Part shown: piece after piece, positions 2,672-63,224 of the stretch
How the letters are laid out: each line of letters opens with the position of its first letter
Numbering within the stretch: position 1 is the first letter of the stretch
Origin: Candidatus Omnitrophota bacterium
GTDB taxonomy: Bacteria; Omnitrophota; Gorgyraeia; Gorgyraeales; Gorgyraeaceae
Direction: 5' to 3'
DNA: 64,000 nucleotides
Assembly: GCA_018819285.1 (NCBI GenBank)
Contig: JAHJQM010000010.1
Span: 10,930 to 74,929 of the forward strand
Translations under genes and position numbers: made by a program
The notes under the pieces: generated by a model
What the model was told of the DNA's origin: nothing
Database searches by the model: none
Seen by the model: the letters and a program-made list of their open reading frames with translations, nothing else

Positions 2672-3595
2672 ATGATAGACTATATTAAAAAAGCTTATAA
2701 ATTAATGGAATCGTGCAGGCTTTGTCCGCGTAAATGCGGAGTTGATAGATTGAAGGGCCAGACGGGATTCTGTAAAGCAGGGAAGTTGCCGATGGTTTCA
2801 AGTTTTCACGCTCATTTTGGCGAAGAGCCTCCAATCTCAGGCAGGAACGGCTCAGGTACGATATTTTTTACGCATTGCAGTCTCAGGTGCGTATTCTGTC
2901 AGAATAATCCTATAAGCCAGTTAGGCCAGGGCAAAGAAACAAGCGCAGAAGAACTAGCAGTCATGATGCTGAGATTACAGACAGAAGGCTGCCATAATAT
3001 AAATTTTGTAACGCCTACTCACTATATACCGCAGATGTTGGAAGCGATATTTATTGCAAGAGATAAGGGTTTGAAAGTTCCATTAGTTTATAATTGCGGC
3101 GGATATGAATCAGTAGAGGCCCTGGAGATTTTAGACGGGATAATTGATATATATATGCCAGATATGAAATATTCCGACAATACATCAGCTAAAAAATATT
3201 CAAATGCCCCGGATTATTTTGAGGTTAATAAAATTGCAGCAAAAGAGATGTACAGACAAGTAGGAGGTTTAAAGATGTATAGAGGCATTGCGAATAAAGG
3301 AATTTTGATAAGGCACCTTGTATTGCCTGAGGATTTAGCTGGCAGTCAGAAAATATTTGAATTTATCGCTAATGAGTTATCGCCAGATACATATGTTAAT
3401 ATAATGGCGCAATATTATCCGTGCCATTCAGCAAATAAATTTCCAGAAATAGACCGCAGGATCACTGCCAGAGAATACATAGAAGCGATCAAATTAGCTG
3501 AAAAAGCAGGCCTCAAAAACGGCTTCAGGCAGGTTATGAGTACTATAAAACGCAAACGTATCCCAGAATGGACTGACAACCTGAAAATAAGTTGA
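2672..3595 (+). CDS. radical SAM protein, PflX family (COG1313, putative activating enzyme)
   Basis: CPRKCGVDR…GFC N-terminal Cys cluster. GEEPPISGRNGSGTIFFTHCSLRCVFCQN radical-SAM motif. Confidence 0.75.
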   Translation: MIDYIKKAYKLMESCRLCPRKCGVDRLKGQTGFCKAGKLPMVSSFHAHFGEEPPISGRNGSGTIFFTHCSLRCVFCQNNPISQLGQGKETSAEELAVMMLRLQTEGCHNINFVTPTHYIPQMLEAIFIARDKGLKVPLVYNCGGYESVEALEILDGIIDIYMPDMKYSDNTSAKKYSNAPDYFEVNKIAAKEMYRQVGGLKMYRGIANKGILIRHLVLPEDLAGSQKIFEFIANELSPDTYVNIMAQYYPCHSANKFPEIDRRITAREYIEAIKLAEKAGLKNGFRQVMSTIKRKRIPEWTDNLKIS

Positions 3596-3622
3596 CACTC
3601 TAACATTGTCAGAGTGTCAACT
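3589..3622 (+). repeat. REP-like 35-bp palindromic hairpin element, copy A (AAGTTGACACTCTAACATTGTCAGAGTGTCAACTT)
   Basis: Seen in sequence. The TGA inside AGTTGAC is the stop codon of the upstream radical-SAM gene. One of 7 near-identical copies in the window. Confidence 0.9.
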
Positions 3623-5707
3623 TATAGGATGATGGGTATGAAAGATTTAAATATTTCTGCAAGATTTGTTAAGGGCGTCGGGCCTTCCAGGTTAAGTACA
3701 TTGAGCCATCTAGGCATAGAGACTATATATGACCTTCTTTATTGTTTTCCGCGCAGGCATGAGGACAGGAGCAGGATCAAGAAGATAACTGAGATAAGGC
3801 CTGGAAATTTTGAAACAATAAAAGTAAAGGTGCTTACCTTTGGAGACCGCATGTCAAAAAAAGGCATGAGTATATTTCAAGTGGCTGTCGGAGATTCTAC
3901 CGGGGTAGTTCACGCTACATGGTTCAATCAGCCGTATATGAAAGATAAATTTAAAATAGGCCAGGAATTGATTTTATATGGAAAGGTGGAAAAATATAAT
4001 TATCTGCAGATAAATAATCCTGAATACGAAATCTTAACTGGCACAAAAGAAGATTTTGTACATATAGCGAGAATTGTGCCTGTATACCCGCTTACTGAAA
4101 GTTTGAACCAGCGATGGTTCAGAAATATTATGAAATTTACAGTGGATAATTATGTGGACGAGGTTAGAGAGATATTGCCGTTTGAGATGCGCAAAAGAAA
4201 CAATCTCATGATACTTAAAGAAGCTGTGAGAAATATCCATTTTCCAGTGAGTGATTTGGTTCTGAAAAAAGCCAGGGAAAGGATTATATTTGACGAGTTT
4301 ATGATATTACAGACAGGTATTGCGTTAAAAAGAGCTAGTATCAAGATAGATTTGAGCGGTTATAGCCATAAATTGGAAGGCGACCTGATAGGCAAATTTA
4401 AAAATAATATGCCGTTTCAATTAACAAAAAGCCAGTCAAAGGTGATAAGAGAAATAGAAGAAGACATGAAGAGCCAAAAGCCGATGAATAGGCTTATACA
4501 GGGAGATGTTGGCAGTGGGAAAACAATAGTGGCTTTATATGCGCTTATTCTGACTGTTCAAAATGGATACCAGGGCGCTTTGATGGTTCCCACAGAGATA
4601 CTCGCAGAGCAGCATTATAGAAATATAAAGACATTGATAAAGCCTCTTGGAATAAATGTAATGCTTTTATCGGGAGATTTAAAAGAAGAAGAGCGCAGGC
4701 GCAGGCGGCAGATGATAGAAACAGGCGAGGCAGATATTATCATAGGCACTCATGCCCTTATTCAAGAAGGAGTCAATTTTAAAAAATTAGGCCTTGCAGT
4801 AATAGACGAACAGCACAAATTCGGAGTCATGCAAAGGGCAATATTAAAATCAAAATCACAAAATCCAGATATACTTGTTATGACAGCGACTCCTATACCA
4901 AGAACTCTGGCATTGACTGTTTATGGAGATATGGATGTGTCAACAATAGACGAATTGCCTCCTGGTAGAGGCGGCGTCAAGACGTTTTTCTTCGAAGAAA
5001 AAAATAGAGACAAAGCTTATAAGATCGCAGAAGAGGAAATAAAAATAGGCAGGCAAGTTTATATAGTTTATCCTATCATAGATGAATCAGAGAAATCAGA
5101 TTTGAGAGCAGCTATTAAGATGCATAAAGATCTGAGCCAGCGTTTTACTGATTTAAAAATAGGGCTTTTGCATGGAAGGATGAAATCAAAAGAAAAAGAG
5201 ACGGTAATGTGCGATTTTAAAGACCGTAAAATAGATATGCTGGTTTCAACCGTAGTTATAGAAGTAGGCGTGGATATCAGCAATGCCAGCGTGATGATTA
5301 TAGAGCATGCCGAAAGATTCGGGCTTAGCCAACTGCATCAATTAAGAGGTAGAATTGGAAGAGGTAAGCACATATCTTACTGCATATTAGTCAGCGAACC
5401 AAAGACAGATGATGCAAAACACAGGTTAAGCGCTATGCTGAATACCCAAGATGGTTTTAAGATAGCGGAAGCTGATCTTGAAATCAGAGGGCCTGGAGAA
5501 TTTTTCGGCACAAAGCAGCATGGCCTTCCTGAATTGAAGATAGCCAATATAGTAAGGGACAGGGATCTGTTAGAACTTGCTAAAGCAGAGGCATTTGATT
5601 TAATTAAAAGAGACAGGTTTTTAAGATTACCTGAAAACAGATTGATAAGAGATAGCCTTTTGTCTAAATTTAGCAAGGAAGACTTAGAACTGGCTTCAGT
5701 AGGATAA
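3614..5707 (+). CDS. recG: ATP-dependent DNA helicase RecG
   Basis: Wedge domain, DEAH-type helicase motifs (GDVGSGKT, DEQH) and a C-terminal helicase domain; 697 aa. Confidence 0.9.
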   Translation: MSTYRMMGMKDLNISARFVKGVGPSRLSTLSHLGIETIYDLLYCFPRRHEDRSRIKKITEIRPGNFETIKVKVLTFGDRMSKKGMSIFQVAVGDSTGVVHATWFNQPYMKDKFKIGQELILYGKVEKYNYLQINNPEYEILTGTKEDFVHIARIVPVYPLTESLNQRWFRNIMKFTVDNYVDEVREILPFEMRKRNNLMILKEAVRNIHFPVSDLVLKKARERIIFDEFMILQTGIALKRASIKIDLSGYSHKLEGDLIGKFKNNMPFQLTKSQSKVIREIEEDMKSQKPMNRLIQGDVGSGKTIVALYALILTVQNGYQGALMVPTEILAEQHYRNIKTLIKPLGINVMLLSGDLKEEERRRRRQMIETGEADIIIGTHALIQEGVNFKKLGLAVIDEQHKFGVMQRAILKSKSQNPDILVMTATPIPRTLALTVYGDMDVSTIDELPPGRGGVKTFFFEEKNRDKAYKIAEEEIKIGRQVYIVYPIIDESEKSDLRAAIKMHKDLSQRFTDLKIGLLHGRMKSKEKETVMCDFKDRKIDMLVSTVVIEVGVDISNASVMIIEHAERFGLSQLHQLRGRIGRGKHISYCILVSEPKTDDAKHRLSAMLNTQDGFKIAEADLEIRGPGEFFGTKQHGLPELKIANIVRDRDLLELAKAEAFDLIKRDRFLRLPENRLIRDSLLSKFSKEDLELASVG

Positions 5708-5744
5708 ACAACTGTGCTCAAGACCAGGTCTTGAGCACAGTTGT
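5708..5744 (+). repeat. perfect 17-bp-stem palindrome ACAACTGTGCTCAAGAC-CAG-GTCTTGAGCACAGTTGT (family 2, copy 1); likely recG terminator
   Basis: Seen in sequence immediately after the recG stop. Shares a 20-nt core with the element at 47789-47834. Confidence 0.85.
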
Positions 5745-5760
5745 TAGAAAGTAAATAGAT

Positions 5761-6772: not shown

Positions 6773-7782
6773 ACTTTTTAGAAAAGATATACGAACGTGG
6801 CCGTAAGGCGAAGAAAAAGATTCTACTATCAGAACCGCACGATGAAAGAGTTCTTAGGGCCATAGAGAGTATTTTAAAATCCGGGATTTGTGTGCCTGTT
6901 CTGATAGGCGATCATGAAGAGGCAAATGGAGTGGCAAAAAAACAAGGGATAGATTTGAAAGGACTGGAGATAATAGATAATAAAAAATCAAAAGATTTGG
7001 ATAAATATGTAGCCTTATATTGCGAAAAACGTAAGCACAAAAAAATTAGTTCCGAAGATGCATTAAAAATAATCACAGAAAATCCTGTTTTTTACGCCAG
7101 CCTTATGGTTAGCGCTGGAGATGCAGATGGATCTGTGGCAGGCGCTTCTATAACTACCCGTGATGTTGCAAAAGCGGCTATCTATTGCATAGGCCCAGCA
7201 GAGAATATAAAAACAGTTTCGAGCTCAACGCTTTTAATACTGGACGATAAGACTCTCGGGTCTAACGGTATCTTTATATATGCTGATGCAGGTATCGTGC
7301 CTGATCCAACTGCAGACGAGCTGGCAGATATTGCAATATCAAGCGCAAGGATGGCAAAGATACTATTAGATGACCAGCCAAAGATTGCGATGTTGAGTTA
7401 CTCAACTAAAGGCAGCGGCGGCTCTAGTAAAAGCATACAGAAAGTCCAAGAAGCTACAAGGATTGCAAGAGAGAGAGAGCCTGACTTACTCATAGAAGGA
7501 GAAATACAGGTCGATTGTGCAGTAGTGCCGGAAGTAGCTCATAGAAAAGACCCTAATTCCAGAATTAAAGGCAGAGCAAATATTTTTATATTTCCAAATT
7601 TAGATGCCGGAAATATTTCATATAAATTAACTCAACGCCTTGCAAAAGCGCGCGCTATAGGACCGCTTCTCCAGGGTCTTCAGAAACCAGCCAGCGACCT
7701 GTCGCGCGGCTGCGATTTTCAGGATATTATAGATGCAGTTGCGATAACAGCTGTCAGGGCACAAGGCGGGTTATTAGTTTAG
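6769..7782 (+). CDS. pta: phosphate acetyltransferase
   Basis: PTA_PTB family similarity along the full length; 337 aa; immediately upstream of acetate kinase. Confidence 0.85.
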   Translation: MNFLEKIYERGRKAKKKILLSEPHDERVLRAIESILKSGICVPVLIGDHEEANGVAKKQGIDLKGLEIIDNKKSKDLDKYVALYCEKRKHKKISSEDALKIITENPVFYASLMVSAGDADGSVAGASITTRDVAKAAIYCIGPAENIKTVSSSTLLILDDKTLGSNGIFIYADAGIVPDPTADELADIAISSARMAKILLDDQPKIAMLSYSTKGSGGSSKSIQKVQEATRIAREREPDLLIEGEIQVDCAVVPEVAHRKDPNSRIKGRANIFIFPNLDAGNISYKLTQRLAKARAIGPLLQGLQKPASDLSRGCDFQDIIDAVAITAVRAQGGLLV

Positions 7783-7852: not shown

Positions 7853-8896
7853 TTGTTAATTCTTGTTTTAAATAGCGGGAGTTCTTCAATAAAATACAAG
7901 CTTTTTGATATTCAAGTTAGTTCGGAAAGGCTTTTGGATAAAGGGCTTTTAGAGAGGATAGGAGAAAAGATCCCTAGCCATAAAGAGGCTATTAATATTA
8001 TATTAGATAAGGCAGGGTCTAAGATAGATGCTGTGGGCCACAGGGTTGTGCATGGAGGCGACAGATTCAAGGAGTCTATTTTAATAGATGATAATGTTAT
8101 AAAAGCGATAGAGGATTTTATTGAACTGGCGCCGCTGCATAATCCGCCAAGCCTATTGACAATAAATGAATCGAGGAAAATACTCTCAAATATTCCCCAT
8201 GTGGCTGTATTTGATACAGCTTTTTATTATGACATGCCTGAGTATGCGTATTTTTATGCGATCCCCTATAAATTTTATGAAAAGTATAAGATTCGTAAAT
8301 ATGGTTTTCATGGAACCAGCCACAGATATGTATCTGAACAGGCAGAGCGTCTTTTAAAGAAGCCTTTAAATGAACTCAAGCTTATTACATGTCACCTTGG
8401 GAATGGGTGCAGCATAACCGCTGTAAAAAACGGCAAGGCAATTGATACAAGCATGGGTTTTACTCCTCTAGAAGGCCTTGTGATGGGCACGCGTTCAGGC
8501 GATCTGGACCCGGCTATCATACCTTATATAATGGAAAAAGAAAATATAGATGTAAATGCAGTTATGGATATTCTAAATAAAAAAAGCGGACTTTTAGGTA
8601 TTTCCGGGTTAAGCAACGACATGCGTGAACTGATGAAAGAAAAAGGCGCAAATAAAAAAGCAAAATTGGCGTTGGATATTTTTATTTACAGGATAAAAAA
8701 ATATATAGGTGCTTATATGGGCGTAATGTCAGGATGCGATGCAGTGATTTTCACAGGGGGCATAGGAGAGAATAACCCAGGCCTTATTGAGGAAATTTGT
8801 AAAGGCGTCGTTTCAAAGGAGACAAAGACCCTGGTGATTCCTACAGACGAAGAATTGATGATTGCCCGGGACACCTATCGCATTGCAGTAAGTTGA
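7853..8896 (+). CDS. ackA: acetate kinase (TTG start)
   Basis: LVLNSGSSSIKYKLF N-terminus and a C-terminal …VIPTDEELMIARDT… motif. TTG start 8 nt after a GAGGTGA Shine-Dalgarno. Confidence 0.85.
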   Translation: MLILVLNSGSSSIKYKLFDIQVSSERLLDKGLLERIGEKIPSHKEAINIILDKAGSKIDAVGHRVVHGGDRFKESILIDDNVIKAIEDFIELAPLHNPPSLLTINESRKILSNIPHVAVFDTAFYYDMPEYAYFYAIPYKFYEKYKIRKYGFHGTSHRYVSEQAERLLKKPLNELKLITCHLGNGCSITAVKNGKAIDTSMGFTPLEGLVMGTRSGDLDPAIIPYIMEKENIDVNAVMDILNKKSGLLGISGLSNDMRELMKEKGANKKAKLALDIFIYRIKKYIGAYMGVMSGCDAVIFTGGIGENNPGLIEEICKGVVSKETKTLVIPTDEELMIARDTYRIAVS

Positions 8897-8924
8897 CACT
8901 CTGACATTGTCAAAGTGTCAACTT
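8890..8924 (+). repeat. REP-like palindromic hairpin element, copy B
   Basis: AAGTTGACACTCTGACATTGTCAAAGTGTCAACTT followed by ATTTTG. Its internal TGA terminates ackA. Confidence 0.9.
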
Positions 8925-9373: not shown

Positions 9374-9383
9374 ATCTTGCTTT

Positions 9384-9430
9384 GTCCCGCCCTTTTGGCG
9401 GGCTACTAAGAAGACTCGCCAAAAGGGCGG
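9384..9430 (+). promoter_or_regulatory. GC-rich alternative-hairpin element in the yceD-rpmF spacer (CCCGCCCTTTTGGCGGGC … CGCCAAAAGGGCGGGG)
   Basis: Two 15-nt segments are exact reverse complements. Each can also fold locally, giving mutually exclusive structures. Confidence 0.5.
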
Positions 9431-9457
9431 GGCTTCGCAAAATATGGAGGTTACAAA

Positions 9458-21712: not shown

Positions 21713-21728
21713 CCACAATGTCGCCGTT

Positions 21729-21763
21729 ATGTTACAAAACAAGTCATACTCGTTTTGTAACAT
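21729..21763 (+). repeat. 35-bp palindrome ATGTTACAAAACAAGTCATACTCGTTTTGTAACAT (P3, copy 1)
   Basis: Seen in sequence. 11-bp arms with a conserved 13-nt centre. A second copy lies at 22231-22265. Confidence 0.85.
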
Positions 21764-21777
21764 TTGAAACCGCCCTA

Positions 21778-21806
21778 TACTTGACATTTTGCATATCATG
21801 GTATAT
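21778..21806 (+). promoter_or_regulatory. candidate sigma70-type promoter TTGACA-N17-TATACT
   Basis: Seen in sequence (…cctatacTTGACAttttgcatatcatggtaTATACT…). Lies between the P3 palindrome and the MerR-like gene. Confidence 0.4.
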
Positions 21807-21858
21807 ACTTACTCTCTAAATGGAGAGTAAGCTATCGCTGTCTATATGGATAGTTGTA

Positions 21859-21893
21859 AGTTTACACTCTAACATTGTCATGGTGTAAACTTA
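21859..21893 (+). repeat. REP-like palindromic hairpin element, copy C (variant AAGTTTACAC…GTGTAAACTT with compensatory T/A pair)
   Basis: Seen in sequence. The G:C to T:A double change keeps the stem intact. Confidence 0.85.
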
Positions 21894-21900
21894 TATAAGA

Positions 21901-21983
21901 TTAATTCCTTAGCCAATTGCGCGTCAGCTGCTTCACTTTGCGAAGTAAAGTAGCGGGAGAGAAATTCAGAGGTGATTATACAT
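21901..21983 (+). promoter_or_regulatory. 5' leader cassette L1, copy 2 (TTAATTCCTTAGCCAATT … AAATTCAGAGGTGATTATACA + TTG)
   Basis: Seen in sequence. Confidence 0.7.
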
Positions 21984-22222
21984 TGGAAAAGATATATTTG
22001 ATAAAAGACTTAGCAAGATTGAGCGGGCAGACAGTTTACACGCTTAAATATTATCTGAATATCGGGCTTATTAAGGAGGTCGCTAGAAGCCCTGAGACTA
22101 ATTTTAGGTATTTTGATGATACTACATTAGAAAGATTAAAGAGAATCAGGGAATTGCGTAAAGAGAATAAGTCAATAGCAGAGATAAAAGATATTTTGGG
22201 TTTGACCACTTCAATCGCGTAG
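21984..22222 (+). CDS. MerR-family helix-turn-helix transcriptional regulator (DNA-binding domain only, ~79 aa; TTG start)
   Basis: LIKDLARLSGQTVYTLKYYLNIGLI…RYF is a MerR HTH signature. The TTG lies 8 nt after GAGGTGA, as in ackA. The 21917 ORF in the track reads through the leader. Confidence 0.6.
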
Positions 22223-22230
22223 ATTACCTA

Positions 22231-22265
22231 ATGTTACAAAATAAGTCATACTAGTTTTGTAACAT
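22231..22265 (+). repeat. 35-bp palindrome ATGTTACAAAATAAGTCATACTAGTTTTGTAACAT (P3, copy 2)
   Basis: Seen in sequence, between the MerR-like stop and the gspA Shine-Dalgarno, followed by AAGAGGTTTTTTA. Confidence 0.85.
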
Positions 22266-22281
22266 AAGAGGTTTTTTAGAG

Positions 22282-28749: not shown

Positions 28750-28784
28750 TAAGTTGACAAACTAACATTGTCAGAGTGTAAACT
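28750..28784 (+). repeat. REP-like palindromic hairpin element, copy D (degenerate: AAGTTGACAAACTAACATTGTCAGAGTGTAAACTT)
   Basis: Seen in sequence directly after the etfB stop. Confidence 0.7.
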
Positions 28785-28806
28785 TTGGCTAAGCGGAAAA
28801 AGTGTT

Positions 28807-34823: not shown

Positions 34824-34828
34824 CATAT

Positions 34829-34948
34829 AATCTTCGGGAGAGGGTGAAATTCCCCACCGGCGGTACAGTCCGCGAGCTCTCATAAAAGAGGGCAGACTTG
34901 GTGCGATTCCAGGACCGATTGTGAAAGGCTAGATGGTAGAAGATAAGT
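34829..34948 (+). ncRNA. FMN riboswitch (RFN element) aptamer
   Basis: TCTTCGGGAGAGGGTGAAATTCCCCACCGGCGGTA … AGAGGGCAGACTTGGTGCGATTCCAGGACCGATTGTGAAAGGCTAGATGG matches the conserved RFN core; upstream of ribBA. Confidence 0.85.
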
Positions 34949-38058: not shown

Positions 38059-39162
38059 ATGAAAAGACATGAATTTTTTATGAGAAAGGTTTTGGATCTG
38101 GCTGAAAAAGGAAAAAGTACTACCAGCCCTAATCCTATGGTAGGCGCGTTGGTCGTAAAGAATGGGAAAATTATAGCAAGCGCTTATCATAGACGGCCAG
38201 GAGGCCTGCACGCAGAGGCTATCGCGCTAAAAAGAATTGGCCAGAAAGCAAGAGGCGCGACGCTTTATGTGAATCTTGAGCCATGCGCCCATTTAGGAAG
38301 AACGCCTCCATGCTCAAAGGCAATTATAAAAAGCGGGATAAAAGAGGTTTATTGCTCAATGATTGACCCAAATCCTTTGAATAATGGAAAAGGCAAAAAG
38401 GAATTAGAGAAAAATGGCGTTAACGTTAGAGTGGGGATTTTAGCTAAAGAAGCAGCAAAGTTAAACGAAGTTTTTATAAAATATGTTACAAAGAAGATGC
38501 CTTTTGTGACAATAAAGGTTGCCGAGTCTCTAGACGGCAAGATAGCTACAAAGACAATGGATTCCAAATGGATTACAGCGGATGAGTCCAGAGATTATTC
38601 GCACAGGCTGCGCAGCGAGATGGATGCTGTGCTTGTGGGCGTGAATACAATAATGAGAGATAACCCTATCCTGACTTCAAGAAAGAATAAATCACCTATA
38701 AAGATTGTGCTAGATTCAAATCTAAGGGTTCCTGAAAGCGCAAAGATTTTTTCAAAGGAATCTCCGGCGCTGAATATAGTGGCAATCCTGAGAAAGTCAT
38801 TAAAGGTCTCGCATATATTAAAAAAAGTGGAGAGATTTAATAAAAAAGGAATTCTCATTATAGCGTGCCCTGGCAAGAATAACAGGATTAACCTGGAATG
38901 GCTTTTAAAAGAGCTGGCAGAACTTGAGATCAGCCGCTTATTAGTAGAAGGCGGAGGAGATACTATAGCAGGATTTTTAGAGCAAGACTTTGTAGATAAG
39001 GCCTTATTTTTCATAGCCCCAAAGATTATAGGCGGCAGAAATGCAGTGACTTCTGTTGAAGGCAGGGGCGTAGAGAAAGTAAGGCAGGCCATAGAACTGA
39101 AAGACATGAAAGTTAAAATGCTTGGCGAAGATATTTTAGTAAGCGGCAGGCCGGTAAGTTGA
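38059..39162 (+). CDS. ribD: bifunctional riboflavin biosynthesis deaminase/reductase RibD
   Basis: CMP/dCMP-type deaminase zinc motif (HAEAIAL … PCAHLGRTPPC) plus a RibD_C reductase domain; 367 aa. Confidence 0.9.
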   Translation: MKRHEFFMRKVLDLAEKGKSTTSPNPMVGALVVKNGKIIASAYHRRPGGLHAEAIALKRIGQKARGATLYVNLEPCAHLGRTPPCSKAIIKSGIKEVYCSMIDPNPLNNGKGKKELEKNGVNVRVGILAKEAAKLNEVFIKYVTKKMPFVTIKVAESLDGKIATKTMDSKWITADESRDYSHRLRSEMDAVLVGVNTIMRDNPILTSRKNKSPIKIVLDSNLRVPESAKIFSKESPALNIVAILRKSLKVSHILKKVERFNKKGILIIACPGKNNRINLEWLLKELAELEISRLLVEGGGDTIAGFLEQDFVDKALFFIAPKIIGGRNAVTSVEGRGVEKVRQAIELKDMKVKMLGEDILVSGRPVS

Positions 39163-39211
39163 CACTCTGACATTGTCAGAGTGTCAACTTACAATGTCAG
39201 AGTGTCAACTT
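39156..39211 (+). repeat. REP-like palindromic hairpin element, copy E, with an extra duplicated half-site (1.5 copies)
   Basis: AAGTTGACACTCTGACATTGTCAGAGTGTCAACTT followed by ACAATGTCAGAGTGTCAACTT. Its internal TGA terminates ribD. Confidence 0.9.
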
Positions 39212-42600: not shown

Positions 42601-42677
42601 CGGGGAGTAGCGCAGTTGGCTTAGCGCGCTTGCTTCGGGAGCAAGAGGCCGGCGGTTCGAATCCGCCCTCCCCGACC
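42601..42677 (+). tRNA. tRNA-Pro (anticodon CGG)
   Basis: Cloverleaf folded by hand: acceptor CGGGGAG/CTCCCCG, D-arm GCGC…GCGC, anticodon stem CTTGC/GCAAG with loop TTCGGGA, T-arm GGCGG-TTCGAAT-CCGCC, discriminator A and encoded CCA. Confidence 0.8.
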
Positions 42678-42749
42678 ACTCTAAAAATTACCCCTTAATC
42701 AAGTATAATATTACCCGGAATAAAGAGGTAATCCAGAGAAAAGGGTTGC

Positions 42750-47781: not shown

Positions 47782-47788
47782 TGGAGAA

Positions 47789-47834
47789 GACCAGGACTTG
47801 AGCACAGTAATTGCTGTGCTCAAGACCTGGTCTT
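47789..47834 (+). repeat. 20-bp-stem palindrome AGACCAGGACTTGAGCACAG-TAATTG-CTGTGCTCAAGACCTGGTCT (family 2, copy 2)
   Basis: Seen in sequence between udg and priA. Shares its core with 5708-5744. Confidence 0.85.
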
Positions 47835-50993: not shown

Positions 50994-51028
50994 AAGTTGA
51001 CACTCTGACATTGTCAGAGTGTCAACTT
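50994..51028 (+). repeat. REP-like palindromic hairpin element, copy F (consensus)
   Basis: AAGTTGACACTCTGACATTGTCAGAGTGTCAACTT immediately after the def stop. Confidence 0.9.
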
Positions 51029-56944: not shown

Positions 56945-57220
56945 ATGGCTATTAAGAAATGTTCGTCAAAAAAGGTGATTTTTAAGATAAGCGCGCCAAC
57001 TGCAAAGGATGTGCGCCTGGCAGGAGATTTTAATTCATGGGATGCATCTAGAGCCAATCTTAAAAAATCTAAAGATGGAGTATGGACAAGAGATTTGACC
57101 CTTAAGTCTGGACGTTATGAGTATAAATATTTAATTGACGGCCAATGGCAGAGAGACCCTTTAAATAATCTTTTCATAGTAAACGCTTTCGGTTCAGAAA
57201 ATTCAGTAATCGAGTTATAA
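56945..57220 (+). CDS. stand-alone CBM48/AMPK-beta-like glycogen-binding-module protein (~91 aa)
   Basis: VIFKISAPTAKDVRLAGDFNSWD…GVW…L…G.YEYKYLIDGQW matches CBM48. ATG at 56945 preceded by AAGGAGGGGG; the ORF opens at 56876. Confidence 0.55.
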   Translation: MAIKKCSSKKVIFKISAPTAKDVRLAGDFNSWDASRANLKKSKDGVWTRDLTLKSGRYEYKYLIDGQWQRDPLNNLFIVNAFGSENSVIEL

Positions 57221-57253
57221 GTTTACACTCTGACATTGTCAAAGTGTAAACTT
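57219..57253 (+). repeat. REP-like palindromic hairpin element, copy G (TTTACAC/GTGTAAA variant)
   Basis: AAGTTTACACTCTGACATTGTCAAAGTGTAAACTT. The TAA of the conserved ATAAGTT terminates the CBM48 gene. Confidence 0.9.
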
Positions 57254-59670: not shown

Positions 59671-61288
59671 AGGTTATCTATGTTTAGTTCTTCATGCACA
59701 CCTTCCATTTGTCAGACATCCTGAAGAGGAGAATTTTCTTGAGGAGAACTGGCTCTACGAAGCCATCACAGAAACTTATATACCTTTTATACAAGTTTTT
59801 GAAAAATTAATCGAAGACCATGTGGATTTCCGCATAACAATGTCCCTGACGCCCACCTTGGCGTCCATGCTTCAGGACGAACTCCTTCAAAACAGATATA
59901 TAAGGCATATTGATAAATTAATAGAACTTGCTGACAAGGAGGTCCAGCGCACAGGCTATGACCCTAAATTTCACGGCCTTGCCCTGATGTATTACAGGAA
60001 GTTTGTGGAGACAAGAGAGATATTTATAGATAAATGCAAAAAAGACCTGGTATCCGCATTTAAAAGATTCCAGGATCTTGGATGTGTTGAGATACTTGCT
60101 TCCTGCGCTACTCACGGATTTCTTCCTATATTAGGTGTAAATCCAACTGATGCAGATGCCCAGGTAAAAGTTGGCGTTGAACATTACAGAAAGACATTCG
60201 GCAGGGACCCTGTTGGGTTCTGGCTTCCTGAATGTGGATATGCCCCAGGCATTGACAATTTTTTAGCAGACTCTGGGATTAAATATTTCTTTGTAGATTC
60301 GCATGGAATTGTAAACGCAGATCCAACGCCAAAGTATAGCGTATACGCGCCTTTATACTGCCCTTCAGGAGTTGCCGCATTCGGGAGAGACTGGGAATCT
60401 TCCAAGCAGGTCTGGAGCTCAAAAGAAGGTTATCCAGGAGACCCTGATTACAGGGAATACTATAAGGATATAGGCCATGAATTGGAGTATGAGTATATAA
60501 AACCGTATATTCATCCAATTGGATTCAGGATAAATACAGGGCTTAAATACTGGAGGATAACAGGAGGTACTGATCATAAGGAGCCGTATGTGCCTGAATG
60601 GGCAAAGGAAAAAGCAGCTACGCACGCAGGGAACTTTATGTTTAACCGCGAAAAACAGATAGAGCATATTGCGTATCATATGGACAGAAAGCCTATGATC
60701 ATTTCTCCTTATGACGCAGAATTATTCGGGCACTGGTGGTTTGAAGGCCCGATGTGGATTGATTTTTTGATACGTAAAATTGCGTATGACCAAAAAACAG
60801 TAAAGCTTGCCACGCCGTCAGATTATCTAAGAGAATACCCTGTTAACCAGATGTCGGTTCCGTCAACATCTACTTGGGGTTATAAAGGTTATAATGAGGT
60901 TTGGCTGGAAGGAAGCAACGACTGGATTTACAAACATCTGCATGTTGCAGGCGAGAGGATGAAAGAATTGGCTGAAAGATTTTTCGATTGCATGGAAAAG
61001 GACAAAAATGACCTGGAGAGACGCGCATTGAATCAGGCTGCGAGAGAGCTTCTCCTTGCGCAGGCAAGCGATTGGCCATTTATAATGAAAACAGGCACGA
61101 TGGTAGAATATGCTAATAAAAGGGTGAAGCTTCACATAAATAGATTTACACATATTTACAAGGATATGCTGAACGGCTCTATTGATAAAGAATGGCTTAA
61201 AGAGGTTGAATCAAGGGATAATATTTTTTCTGATATGGATTGTGCTAAATATTATATTCAAAACAAAATAAGTAAAGGAGTGGTATGA
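59663..61288 (+). CDS. glycoside hydrolase family 57 1,4-alpha-glucan branching enzyme
   Basis: LVLHAHLPFVRHPE N-terminus with downstream catalytic Glu/Asp regions (WLPECGY, SPYDAELFGHWWFEG); 541 aa. Confidence 0.8.
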   Translation: MHKGYLCLVLHAHLPFVRHPEEENFLEENWLYEAITETYIPFIQVFEKLIEDHVDFRITMSLTPTLASMLQDELLQNRYIRHIDKLIELADKEVQRTGYDPKFHGLALMYYRKFVETREIFIDKCKKDLVSAFKRFQDLGCVEILASCATHGFLPILGVNPTDADAQVKVGVEHYRKTFGRDPVGFWLPECGYAPGIDNFLADSGIKYFFVDSHGIVNADPTPKYSVYAPLYCPSGVAAFGRDWESSKQVWSSKEGYPGDPDYREYYKDIGHELEYEYIKPYIHPIGFRINTGLKYWRITGGTDHKEPYVPEWAKEKAATHAGNFMFNREKQIEHIAYHMDRKPMIISPYDAELFGHWWFEGPMWIDFLIRKIAYDQKTVKLATPSDYLREYPVNQMSVPSTSTWGYKGYNEVWLEGSNDWIYKHLHVAGERMKELAERFFDCMEKDKNDLERRALNQAARELLLAQASDWPFIMKTGTMVEYANKRVKLHINRFTHIYKDMLNGSIDKEWLKEVESRDNIFSDMDCAKYYIQNKISKGVV

Positions 61289-62607
61289 AAATAAATTCAT
61301 ATTTTGGCATAGCGCTTCATATGCATCAACCAGTAATTCCAGCAGGCGGCTCTGACATCAGGACAGCGAAACTGATTTCTAATTTGCAATATATGATGGA
61401 TCATCAGGATATCGGAGACAATCACAATGCGTCTGTATTTTTGAATTGTTATTCAAGGATAGCTGATTTTGTAAGAGAACTTTCGGGCGAAGGTAAAAAT
61501 CCAAGGATCATGCTGGATTATTCGGGAAATCTTCTTTGGGGCCTTAAGGATATGGGTGAAGAAAGAGTCTTGGATAATCTCAAGCTCGTTACCTGCGATA
61601 AAAAATATTCCGGGTATGTGGAATGGCTCGGGACAATGTTGTCGCATTCCGTGGTCAGTTCTACTCCTGTCCCGGACATAAGACTTCATATAAAAGAATG
61701 GCAGGGTTATTTTGCGTCAATATTCGGACAAAAAGCCCTTAAAAAGGTCAAAGGGTTTTCTAGCCCTGAGATGCATCTTCCGATCCATCCTGATGTGTGT
61801 TTTGAATACATAAAAGCTTTGAAAGAATGCGGATATAAATGGCTCATGGTCCAGGAGCATACGATAGAAAACCTGGACGGCACGTCTGTAAGAAGGCCGC
61901 ATTTTCCACATAAGTTAGTCGCTAAAAATTCTCTTGGAGAAAAGGCAGAGATAACAGTTATTATAAAGACTCAAGGGTCTGATAATAAACTCATTGGCCA
62001 GATGCAGCCATATTACGAAGCCAAGACTTTAGGACATGAGATATACTGCGGTGTTGAACTTCCACCTTTTGTAGCTCAGATAGGGGATGGAGAAAATGGT
62101 GGAGTAATGATGAATGAATTTCCAGAAGCGTACAAGAAGGCTTTTCGAGAAACAGGCTGTGAAGGCACAGCCGGCATGAATGGAACAGAGTACCTTGAAT
62201 TTGTAAAACAGGCTGGTTTGGACGAAAAGTCATTTATGCCTGTACAGCCTATTTCTCAGAGCAAGATCTGGGAATTTTTAAAGGAATATTCTCATGGCGC
62301 AGCTGACAAGGCTATTGAAAAAGTGAAACAAAAATATCCAGGCTTCAGTTTAGAAAAGGCATCATGGACGAACGATAAAGATTGGGTAAAGGGTTACGAA
62401 GATATAATGGATCCCATAATCCAGCTTAGCGCGGCATTTCATAAGAAATTTGACAATAAAAATATAGATAAAGCAAGCCCTGCTTATAAAAAAGCGCTTC
62501 TTTATTTATTATTATCTCAGACAAGTTGCTTTCGTTATTGGGGAACAGGCGTATGGACAGATTATGCAAAGGAGATCTGCCGCAGGGGTATGGAAGCGCT
62601 AAAATAA
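61285..62607 (+). CDS. GH57-like protein (HxHQP motif)
   Basis: IALHMHQP N-terminal motif; 440 aa; family assignment is tentative. Confidence 0.5.
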   Translation: MKINSYFGIALHMHQPVIPAGGSDIRTAKLISNLQYMMDHQDIGDNHNASVFLNCYSRIADFVRELSGEGKNPRIMLDYSGNLLWGLKDMGEERVLDNLKLVTCDKKYSGYVEWLGTMLSHSVVSSTPVPDIRLHIKEWQGYFASIFGQKALKKVKGFSSPEMHLPIHPDVCFEYIKALKECGYKWLMVQEHTIENLDGTSVRRPHFPHKLVAKNSLGEKAEITVIIKTQGSDNKLIGQMQPYYEAKTLGHEIYCGVELPPFVAQIGDGENGGVMMNEFPEAYKKAFRETGCEGTAGMNGTEYLEFVKQAGLDEKSFMPVQPISQSKIWEFLKEYSHGAADKAIEKVKQKYPGFSLEKASWTNDKDWVKGYEDIMDPIIQLSAAFHKKFDNKNIDKASPAYKKALLYLLLSQTSCFRYWGTGVWTDYAKEICRRGMEALK

Positions 62608-62636
62608 ATGTAACAATATTATTTCATACTTTTGCT

Positions 62637-62941
62637 CTGCTCAGGCCAGCAGTTTGAGAGGCCTTTTTGACACGAGCGGGCACGGTGTCTGTTGAGCCAG
62701 GTGGGGCCATTCGGCACTGAATCGTTTCGCCGTCCGCTACGGTTTATGGTTCGTTCTTCTGTCGACTATCGTATTGTCAACCGATCAGAACTCACCATAA
62801 ATCCTTGCGGACTTTTGCCGAAACGATTCTAATGTGCCTCAGACCCCGCCTGGCTCAACAGACGAGCGAGTGTCAAAACGGAGCAAAATTTTTACGCTGG
62901 GAAAATTTTGCGTCCTCGCAAACTGCTGGTCTGGGCAGAGA
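62637..62941 (+). ncRNA. ~305-nt GC-rich nested inverted-repeat element (candidate structured ncRNA or MITE-like insertion)
   Basis: Outer arms CTCTGCTCAGGCCAGCAGTTTGAGAGG (62637-62663) and CCTCGCAAACTGCTGGTCTGGGCAGAG (62915-62941). Further nested reverse-complement blocks lie inside. No ORF of note, and GC content is clearly above flanking DNA. Confidence 0.45.
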
Positions 62942-63032
62942 TCAGGAACATAGCCATTAAAATAGGTCTTAAACAGACTGATTGACAAGGATTTTATTAT
63001 CTGATATAGTCTATAAAACACAAGGAGGAAAG

Positions 63033-63224
63033 ATGATAAAGAAACTGAAGAAAGTCTTATCGCTGGATAATAATGAAAATCGTGTCAGCCGTGAAGAATT
63101 TATGCAGCTTGTCCAGAAAAAGGCATACGAAATTTATGAAAAAAGAGGGTGTCAATCTGGCAATGACCTGGAAGATTGGCTTAATGCTGAAAGGTTAGTG
63201 AAAGAAGACCTTGGAGTAAAATGA
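63033..63224 (+). CDS. DUF2934-family small protein
   Basis: …AYEIYEKRG…GNDLEDWLNAE… motif; strong AAGGAGG Shine-Dalgarno before the ATG at 63033; ATGA overlap with the next gene. Confidence 0.5.
   Translation: MIKKLKKVLSLDNNENRVSREEFMQLVQKKAYEIYEKRGCQSGNDLEDWLNAERLVKEDLGVK

Follow-up and report, generated by a model that had tools for sequence, protein, structure and literature searches.

What is the GC-rich, almost entirely self-complementary sequence that separates a GH57-like gene from a DUF2934 gene in Candidatus Omnitrophota, and is it a resident of that junction or an arrival? It lies in a stretch of 64,000 nt (assembly GCA_018819285.1, contig JAHJQM010000010.1, positions 10,930 to 74,929 of the forward strand), which we call the window. 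Judging by its flanking proteins, the window belongs to Candidatus Omnitrophota. Omnitrophota are uncultivated, and to our knowledge almost nothing is known of their non-coding DNA or mobile elements. An initial annotation, made from the letters of the window alone, had proposed that this spacer holds either a non-coding RNA (ncRNA) or a MITE (miniature inverted-repeat transposable element). We find that the element is a previously uncatalogued bacterial intergenic palindromic repeat with unusually RNA-like conservation and that its family is, as far as our scans show, confined to a narrow clade of Candidatus Omnitrophota. Our preferred reading, which we hold with about even confidence, is that of a REPIN-like, structure-dependent, non-autonomous mobile repeat that is carried passively in operon transcripts.

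The element spans window 62635-62940 on the + strand (306 nt), and its GC content is 52.6%, compared with 39% for the whole window. Its neighbours and the inverted repeats within it are as follows.

61285-62607: GH57-like open reading frame (ORF), upstream neighbour
63033-63224: DUF2934 ORF, downstream neighbour
62635-62661 with 62914-62940: inverted repeat, outer arms, 27 nt, 89% complementary
62662-62673 with 62870-62881: inverted repeat
62687-62706 with 62844-62863: inverted repeat
62719-62729 with 62819-62829: inverted repeat
62732-62757 with 62787-62812: inverted repeat
62883-62892 with 62902-62911: separate small hairpin

Folding gives a nearly wholly self-paired rod with a three-way junction, not one plain hairpin. 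As RNA, the + strand has a minimum free energy of -171.1 kcal/mol (z = -13.97, with none of 100 shuffles as good) and the - strand one of -165.4 kcal/mol (z = -13.88); as single-stranded DNA (ssDNA), the + strand reaches -95.9 kcal/mol (z = -13.9). Folding stability is well beyond chance on both strands and with both the RNA and the DNA energy sets. The nested, GC-rich and nearly total self-complementarity that the initial annotation described is thus borne out. Its 27-nt imperfect outer arms exist, at coordinates 1-2 nt away from those it gave; the three mismatches between them on the + strand are U·G, G·U and A·G, as it had claimed, and the GTCGAC site that it placed in the central region is located at 62761-62766.

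Within the 64-kb window the element occurs once. Its wider distribution was assessed with an exact-word scan (a 19-mer found in both arms) over one genome per species, 185,579 species genomes in all, which returned full copies in Omnitrophota only: two, on different contigs of the metagenome-assembled genome (MAG) UBA10183. The idea of a GC-richer donor, raised in the initial annotation, accordingly finds no support. A metagenome scan recovered these two UBA10183 loci again and, on a further contig (L016/L035), a copy to each side of nadC; context look-ups added one copy in CG1_02_40_15 (L028) and a split copy in GWA2_41_15, a genome 100% identical to UBA10183 over the loci that they share. 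The GH57-like protein of the window (MBU1327817) and the nadC product of L035 (MBU1328225) have accessions only 408 apart, which indicates that they belong to one MAG; the window genome therefore holds at least three copies (that of the window, and an A and a B copy on another contig), and the GWA2_41_15/UBA10183 genome has at least three loci with the element.

Comparison with L007, L009, L016 and L032 by BLAST, nhmmer and MAFFT shows 95-97% identity between copies at different loci over exactly window 62635-62940, which defines a 306-nt repeat unit (CTCTG...CAGAG) on the + strand. Those between nadC and uvrB form a divergent subfamily, B, with ~65% identity to the window copy in a structural alignment (207 of 311 columns); within a 202-nt core the figure is ~81%. 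Indels of 1-2 nt, not multiples of three, separate the A from the B copies, so we rejected coding potential and regard the element as non-coding. The initial annotation had named copy number as the property that would separate a MITE from an ncRNA, and the element is indeed multi-copy and dispersed. Scans of ~319 kb of related sequence by nhmmer --max and loop motifs brought no additional copies, although diverged ones could escape detection. BLAST against plasmids and phages gave no match, and three viral-contig scans gave nothing, or GC-rich chance matches.

The 19-mer also occurs in Bryobacterales, Pirellulales, Acidimicrobiaceae and others as a lone word without its partner arm, which we take as chance, with one exception (L006). 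There, at 548-636 on the - strand of a Bryobacterales MAG (JAHCHD010000097.1), there is an 86-nt nhmmer match (E = 2e-4) to the element's 3′ half, including CCTGGCTCAACAGACGAGCGTGT; it too is without a partner arm and adjoins a tRNA gene, and it may be either chance or a distant relative in another phylum. The Logan unitigs of SRR6514730 end inside element copies at all three loci of the window genome (the end of L002, the start of L004 and both ends of L036): the repeat fragments short-read assemblies.

Five junctions between genes are filled by the element.

GH57-like and DUF2934: the window
cytidylyltransferase-like and ThiD2: L007
valS and nadC: L009, L013, L016, L032, L033
nadC and uvrB: L016, L028-31
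phosphoglycerate-mutase-like and aspartate kinase: L032

At all five, the element and both flanking housekeeping genes point in the same direction, so that the element is in sense orientation, and it starts at, or no more than ~30 nt past, the upstream stop codon. The inserted sequence itself supplies the stop codon of the upstream gene in the window (GH57-like) and in L007 (cytidylyltransferase-like), and in L009 the downstream start codon lies 16 nt past the stem.

For three of these junctions, both filled and empty alleles are seen. That between the GH57-like gene and DUF2934 is empty in L005 (flanks 96-98% identical), L026, L027 and L024; the flanks of the closest relatives there are 92-97% identical, and the empty alleles have a spacer of 57-72 nt of the form ...AAATAG ACTNATTGACA... 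The valS–nadC junction is empty in L028, and the nadC–uvrB junction is empty in L032, where the two genes overlap. The outgroup Ga0302250 (including L038 at the GH57-like–DUF2934 junction) is empty at all four comparable junctions. This presence and absence at the same junction in relatives implies gain in a narrow clade rather than a conserved syntenic gene. Of the two classes proposed by the initial annotation, a syntenic, single-copy ncRNA is thereby set aside, given the junctions empty in relatives and the 95-97% identical copies at unrelated loci, while a mobile repeat stands; the MITE label fits the dispersed copies of variable presence but not the terminal arms, which are the least conserved part, and a consistent target-site duplication is not seen.

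Against the empty alleles, the window has a surplus of 369 bp (62605-62973), made up of the 306-nt unit and two flanking parts.

62605-62634, + strand: left part, 30 nt, AT-rich, absent in empty-site relatives, not found in other copies
62941-62973, + strand: right part, 33 nt, not found in other copies; holds TTAAAATAG and CTTAAA, resembling the original gene end

The TAA at 62605-62607, the stop codon of the GH57-like gene, lies within the left part. A similar surplus, ~20 nt per side, is seen in the filled allele at the nadC–uvrB junction. At the edges of the 369-bp indel are CTAAAA and CTTAAA (CTGAAA in the empty allele), an imperfect match that is not general, and TAAAATA repeats stand 358 nt apart at the window site and are not common to the other sites; we rejected both CTNAAA and TAAAATA as target-site duplications, as neither is perfect or general between sites. 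L005 and the window have the same TAG>CAG change just downstream of the junction, which would fit either insertion into an already mutated allele or precise excision in L005. That L005 is itself a secondary deletion is hinted at by the C-termini of homologues (...EALK*), but this is weakened by the collinearity of L026, L027 and L024 with L005. A strong sigma-70-like promoter (TTGACA-17-TATAGT with TG, 11/12) is seen at window 62982-63010, upstream of DUF2934. It is kept in L005, L023, L024, L026 and L027, and the element sits between it and the upstream stop codon.

The three-way junction joins an outer stem (P1), a long arm and a side hairpin (P3); the long arm runs from helix P2a through an asymmetric internal loop into an apical hairpin with several small internal loops. 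All parts are given on the + strand.

62635-62661: P1 5′ arm, outer stem (helix 1); double changes in 11 of 25 pairs
62662-62673: P2a 5′ arm (CCTTTTTGACAC), begins at the three-way junction (helix 2)
62674-62686: asymmetric internal loop, 5′ strand (GAGCGGGCACGGT), invariant in the A and B subfamilies
62687-62863: apical hairpin module (GTCTGTTGAG...CTCAACAGAC), conserved internal loops, 9-nt tip loop after GTCGAC
62864-62869: asymmetric internal loop, 3′ strand (GAGCGA), conserved
62870-62881: P2a 3′ arm (GTGTCAAAACGG)
62883-62911: P3 side hairpin (helix 8); double changes in 6 of 12 pairs
62914-62940: P1 3′ arm

Among the A copies, the interior is nearly invariant, whereas the distal ~20 nt of P1 are locus-specific in sequence and yet always remain complementary. 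The 9-nt loop of P3, YACGCTGGG, is conserved (TACGCTGGG in the window copy, CACGCTGGG in the others), and it is unchanged even in subfamily B, where the stem beneath it has been swapped entirely, from AAAAUUUU/AAAAUUUU to GGACGC/GCGUCC. The 5′ strand of the asymmetric loop has one variant, in the basal module of the split copy in L032. In that copy the apical hairpin stands alone and is followed by the basal module, whose apical part has given way to a 25-nt mini-hairpin; each of the two modules folds independently. A decayed piece on the 3′ side of the split copy (L032 4140-4185; GAAACGATTCAATGT...CTTGGCTCAG) looks like the apical module's 3′ arm. Several insertion or rearrangement events mark the history of the L032 locus.

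To what extent is this fold maintained? We aligned seven distinct copies by structure, after removing by hand the two small hairpin insertions nested in the L028 B copy, and obtained a consensus of 115 pairs. Standard pairs form in 95.1% of the cells, versus 35-45% in controls with slid partners, and 35 pairs are changed on both sides, versus 4-9 in those controls. None of 500 shuffles reaches the observed percentage paired, the double-change counts or the covariation score; the pair types are not exceptional, the observed value being reached in 107 of 500. Apart from two short helices that are invariant, every helix contributes double changes. Between the subfamilies, identity is 80-82% in unpaired columns and 60-68% in paired ones (Fisher p = 0.0004-0.002), and the difference persists when the distal outer stem is left out (p = 0.027). 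On the + strand G·U exceeds A·C (30 versus 8 cells, 15 versus 6 pairs; p = 0.04 by pairs), which mildly favours the sense strand as the one that would be folded. The initial annotation had cautioned that wobble support in its single copy was weak; this was fair, and the family-level data strengthen that support moderately. What survives of its RNA proposal is this G·U excess on the sense strand, the compensatory upkeep of the fold and the better conservation of loops than of stems.

Orthologous copies bear on the same question. The B copies of two species whose nadC genes are 88% identical show compensated substitutions and a compensated 3-nt indel in both arms, the fold being kept after ~13% divergence. 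The copies between valS and nadC in two lineages differ at 5 of 306 positions, compared with 32% at nadC four-fold sites. Purifying selection on this basis is tempered by a low-divergence tract that extends ~45 nt into valS and ~75 nt into nadC: because the tract enters both flanking genes, recent recombination of the filled allele explains at least part of the apparent conservation.

None of the systems with which we compared the element matches it fully. Rfam 15 (4227 models) gave no match to the element at or near gathering score, whether in E-value mode (window copy, A and B copies of L016, split copy of L032) or in gathering mode (whole window); the best E-values, 0.5-7, were to unrelated families. 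The initial annotation had seen no RNase P, tmRNA or SRP signature. REPINs form hairpins in ssDNA or mRNA, commonly show compensatory changes and are moved by RAYTs (PMC3116915). Our element resembles them in being non-coding, extragenic and multi-copy, in that the whole unit is a predicted ssDNA or mRNA hairpin kept by compensatory change (PMC3116915), and in its presence or absence differing between related strains; nor is a target-site duplication expected of a REPIN. However, REPINs are ~70-120 nt long and number tens to hundreds per genome, as opposed to 306 nt and ~3 copies here; they have conserved REP words at their ends and a variable spacer, whereas our element has variable ends and a conserved interior; and its three-way junction is unlike a REPIN fold.

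The defining features of MITEs are conserved terminal inverted repeats (TIRs) and direct repeats on either side, and as RNA they often form long stem-loops; one such repeat, bcr1 (Bacillus cereus group), has compensatory changes in its base pairs, and its genomic distribution is not conserved (PMC3184786). Like Correia/CREE, ERIC and bcr1, the element is a small, non-coding, intergenic repeat, predicted to be co-transcribed, with a long stem-loop at the RNA level. It is dispersed and multi-copy (306 nt, with at least three loci in each of two genomes), and its insertion is polymorphic among related genomes. Unlike these repeats, it shows neither conserved TIRs (the distal ~20 nt of each arm are its most variable part) nor flanking direct repeats, its size is at the upper end of their range, and its loops are better conserved than its stems. 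No parent insertion sequence was seen in ~319 kb of related sequence. Also lacking are the features of IS200/IS605-derived PATEs, namely two subterminal end hairpins and a fixed tetra- or pentanucleotide target: the element is one continuous rod, and its 5′ flanks share no word.

Integron attC sites are recombined as folded single strands, are conserved more in structure than in sequence, have a variable apical part and act in an orientation-specific manner. They are 57-141 nt long, with the form 5′ RYYYAAC ... GTTRRRY 3′. The element has GTTGAGC and GCTCAAC in the opposite order, and in subfamily A only; no integrase lies nearby, and the flanks are essential housekeeping genes (valS, nadC, uvrB, GH57, thiD) rather than cassettes. 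Among bacteria, OLE, GOLLD, ROOL and HEARO are large structured ncRNAs that stand as GC-rich islands in genomes rich in AT. The element is like them in being a GC-rich intergenic island of several hundred nt with covarying stems, conserved loops and a hairpin of variable length set in a conserved scaffold, but it differs in occurring as several copies at unrelated housekeeping junctions, in being missing from close relatives and in having no associated gene class.

From these comparisons we infer that REPIN/REP-type behaviour is likelier than that of a cut-and-paste MITE. Copying or movement would involve a single strand in its folded form; the likeliest candidate is the sense strand, which could be exposed as lagging-strand template in strongly strand-biased genomes (in the window, the + strand carries nearly all ORFs and GC skew is positive, indicating strong co-orientation with replication). 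The agent would be an enzyme that recognises structure and works in trans, for instance a transposase of the HUH/Y1 kind (RAYT or IS200-like) or a recombinase; it would read the conserved loops, and the stems would need only to pair. Filled alleles may also spread between strains by homologous recombination, and the low-divergence tract in both genes flanking the valS–nadC copies fits recent transfer of this kind. Once inserted, the element would be co-transcribed in the operon mRNA as a very stable three-way-junction rod and tolerated there.

Several observations weigh against this reading. The termini are the most variable part of the element, the opposite of MITE TIRs and of the REP ends of REPINs, and the block missing in empty alleles (369 bp in the window, ~350 bp at the nadC–uvrB junction) exceeds the 306-nt unit. 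Across four sites, no direct repeat is shared at the ends of the unit and there is no common flanking 4-5-mer (the 5′ flanks read CTTTTG, TCTTTA, TTGGCT and GTTAAG). Copy number by the exact-word scan is low, 2-3 per genome. No RAYT or transposase turned up, though whole genomes were not searched for one. A merely selfish, fixed copy would not be predicted to keep its paired fold as the orthologous B copies do, and loops that are better conserved than stems are a pattern to be expected of a functional RNA too.

These last points are the strength of the most serious rival, a structured RNA family used by the host, transcribed in operons and made multi-copy by duplication, which we consider possible but hold to only tentatively. 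Its outer stem would release or anchor the RNA, for example through RNase III cleavage of P1 in the manner of rRNA processing stems, and its conserved loops (GAGCGGGCACGGU/GAGCGA, the CACGCUGGG hairpin loop and the apical loops) would bind a protein or another RNA. The 35 covarying pairs, an outer stem that requires pairing and not sequence, and a modular design with a swappable apical hairpin, as in many structured RNAs, all fit, as do the sense orientation inside operons at every site and the fold of the B orthologues. The G·U excess fits as well, but this asymmetry suits a sense-strand ssDNA hairpin equally; similarly, the near-identity of the valS–nadC orthologues speaks for an RNA only to the extent that recent recombination does not account for it. 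Each site that could be compared is empty in close strains or in the outgroup, so no site is essential; the genes next to it serve unrelated functions (glycogen, NAD, DNA repair, thiamine, aspartate kinase); the only promoter or terminator signals inside the element are weak pattern matches; and Rfam holds nothing like it. A functional RNA thus accounts better than a mobile repeat for the conserved loops and for the upkeep of the fold at fixed orthologous loci, and worse for the patchy presence and the unrelated neighbours. A broader formulation, which we think doubtful, would make the family a new, Omnitrophota-specific class of ~300-nt structured nucleic acid, a three-way-junction rod with invariant loops that a dedicated partner would recognise. 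It would then be a processed RNA that serves the cell, or else the substrate of an unrecognised structure-guided mobility with a locus-specific outer stem and without TIRs or target-site duplications.

A purely passive role between cistrons, like that of REP, ERIC or terminator hairpins, seems improbable to us: the element would be one of several palindrome families that stand behind stop codons in these genomes, and would act through stability alone, be it in mRNA 3′-end protection, transcription attenuation or as a processing site, with its pairing kept mainly by template-switch correction of a quasi-palindrome. Templated correction would easily produce the compensated 3-nt indels in both arms, yet it, or selection for pure stability, would erase the asymmetric loops, which are the best conserved part. 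The window element does lie in the position of a terminator, between a stop codon and a conserved promoter; no U-tract follows its stems, apart from two weak pattern matches inside the element, and in L009, with the start codon so close to the stem, termination would silence nadC. Directly behind stop codons, the window (7 copies) and the outgroup both have other palindrome families, and the outgroup has such palindromes at 3 of 4 element junctions (p about 0.02), but 306 nt and a three-way junction far exceed what stability needs. That the element is a chance palindrome or an assembly artefact (a chimeric inverted duplication) we regard as practically negligible: Logan unitigs do break inside it, but its arms are imperfect and contain indels, z is -14, and the same sequence appears at several loci in independent ENA (MEGAHIT contig), JGI, NCBI and Logan assemblies.

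Whichever reading holds, the family offers a clean, testable case: it is large, its filled and empty alleles are clear, and subfamily B gives dozens of compensatory pairs. Its combination of invariant loops, free stems and a locus-specific outer stem fits the definition of neither a MITE nor a REPIN. Should an enzyme read the loops, the family would point to mobilisation guided by structure in a phylum that has been little studied; should they be read in RNA, it would be a new large structured RNA. MAG annotation is affected as well, since the element breaks short-read assemblies and, where it supplies stop codons, alters gene ends.

Other palindromes occupy similar positions. In the window, a REP-like family of near-perfect 35-39-nt palindromes (AAGTTKACAC...GTGTMAACTT) is found directly after stop codons.

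3589-3623: REP-like palindrome
8890-8924: REP-like palindrome
21858-21892: REP-like palindrome
28751-28785: REP-like palindrome
39156-39190: REP-like palindrome, extra arm to 39212
50994-51028: REP-like palindrome
57219-57253: REP-like palindrome

The word TTGACAC, which is also the core of the element's P2a stem, occurs 16 times in the window against 3.4 expected. A variant of this family is present at 7 junctions of the outgroup loci L037 and L038, including the 3 of 4 that the element fills in the ingroup, which suggests that these junctions attract or tolerate hairpins in general; the family is absent from the GWA2_41_15 and L028 loci. A second family of small palindromes (CTGTGCTCAAGACC and GGTCTTGAGCACAG) stands at gene ends at window 5707-5745 and 47787-47834. 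We considered whether the outer-stem arms could be the remnant of such a CTGTGCTCAAGACC palindrome invaded by a 280-nt unit, and rejected this, as the similarity needs a gap and is at chance level.

L023, with 90% identity in the GH57-like protein, has a distinct ~75-nt palindromic element (TTATTCCGTTCGCCGATCGGGATCGG...) at the exact same post-stop spot (3815-3893), flanked by AATAG(A) repeats, and another hairpin between the promoter and the DUF2934 start (3950-4020). The hairpins nested in the L028 B copy, at 7345-7426 and 7446-7478, are tiny and GC-rich (GAAGCCCCGCCCTTT...AAAGGGCGGG), with short duplications (GACGA, CGAAG); together with the L023 palindrome, they point to a genome milieu of mobile palindromes. 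A hairpin at window 9374-9443 has a GGGCGGG core that matches these nested hairpins. The sole Rfam and ARAGORN matches in the window are an FMN riboswitch (34826-34948, 100 bits) and a tRNA-Pro(CGG) (42601-42678). Finally, a stretch of 34 nt at window 21730-21763 (- strand) is 100% identical in GWA2_41_15/UBA10183 (L009 1282-1315 / L018 1491-1524); it lies inside a 570-nt intergenic region (21713-22281) that is also home to one of the REP-like palindromes.

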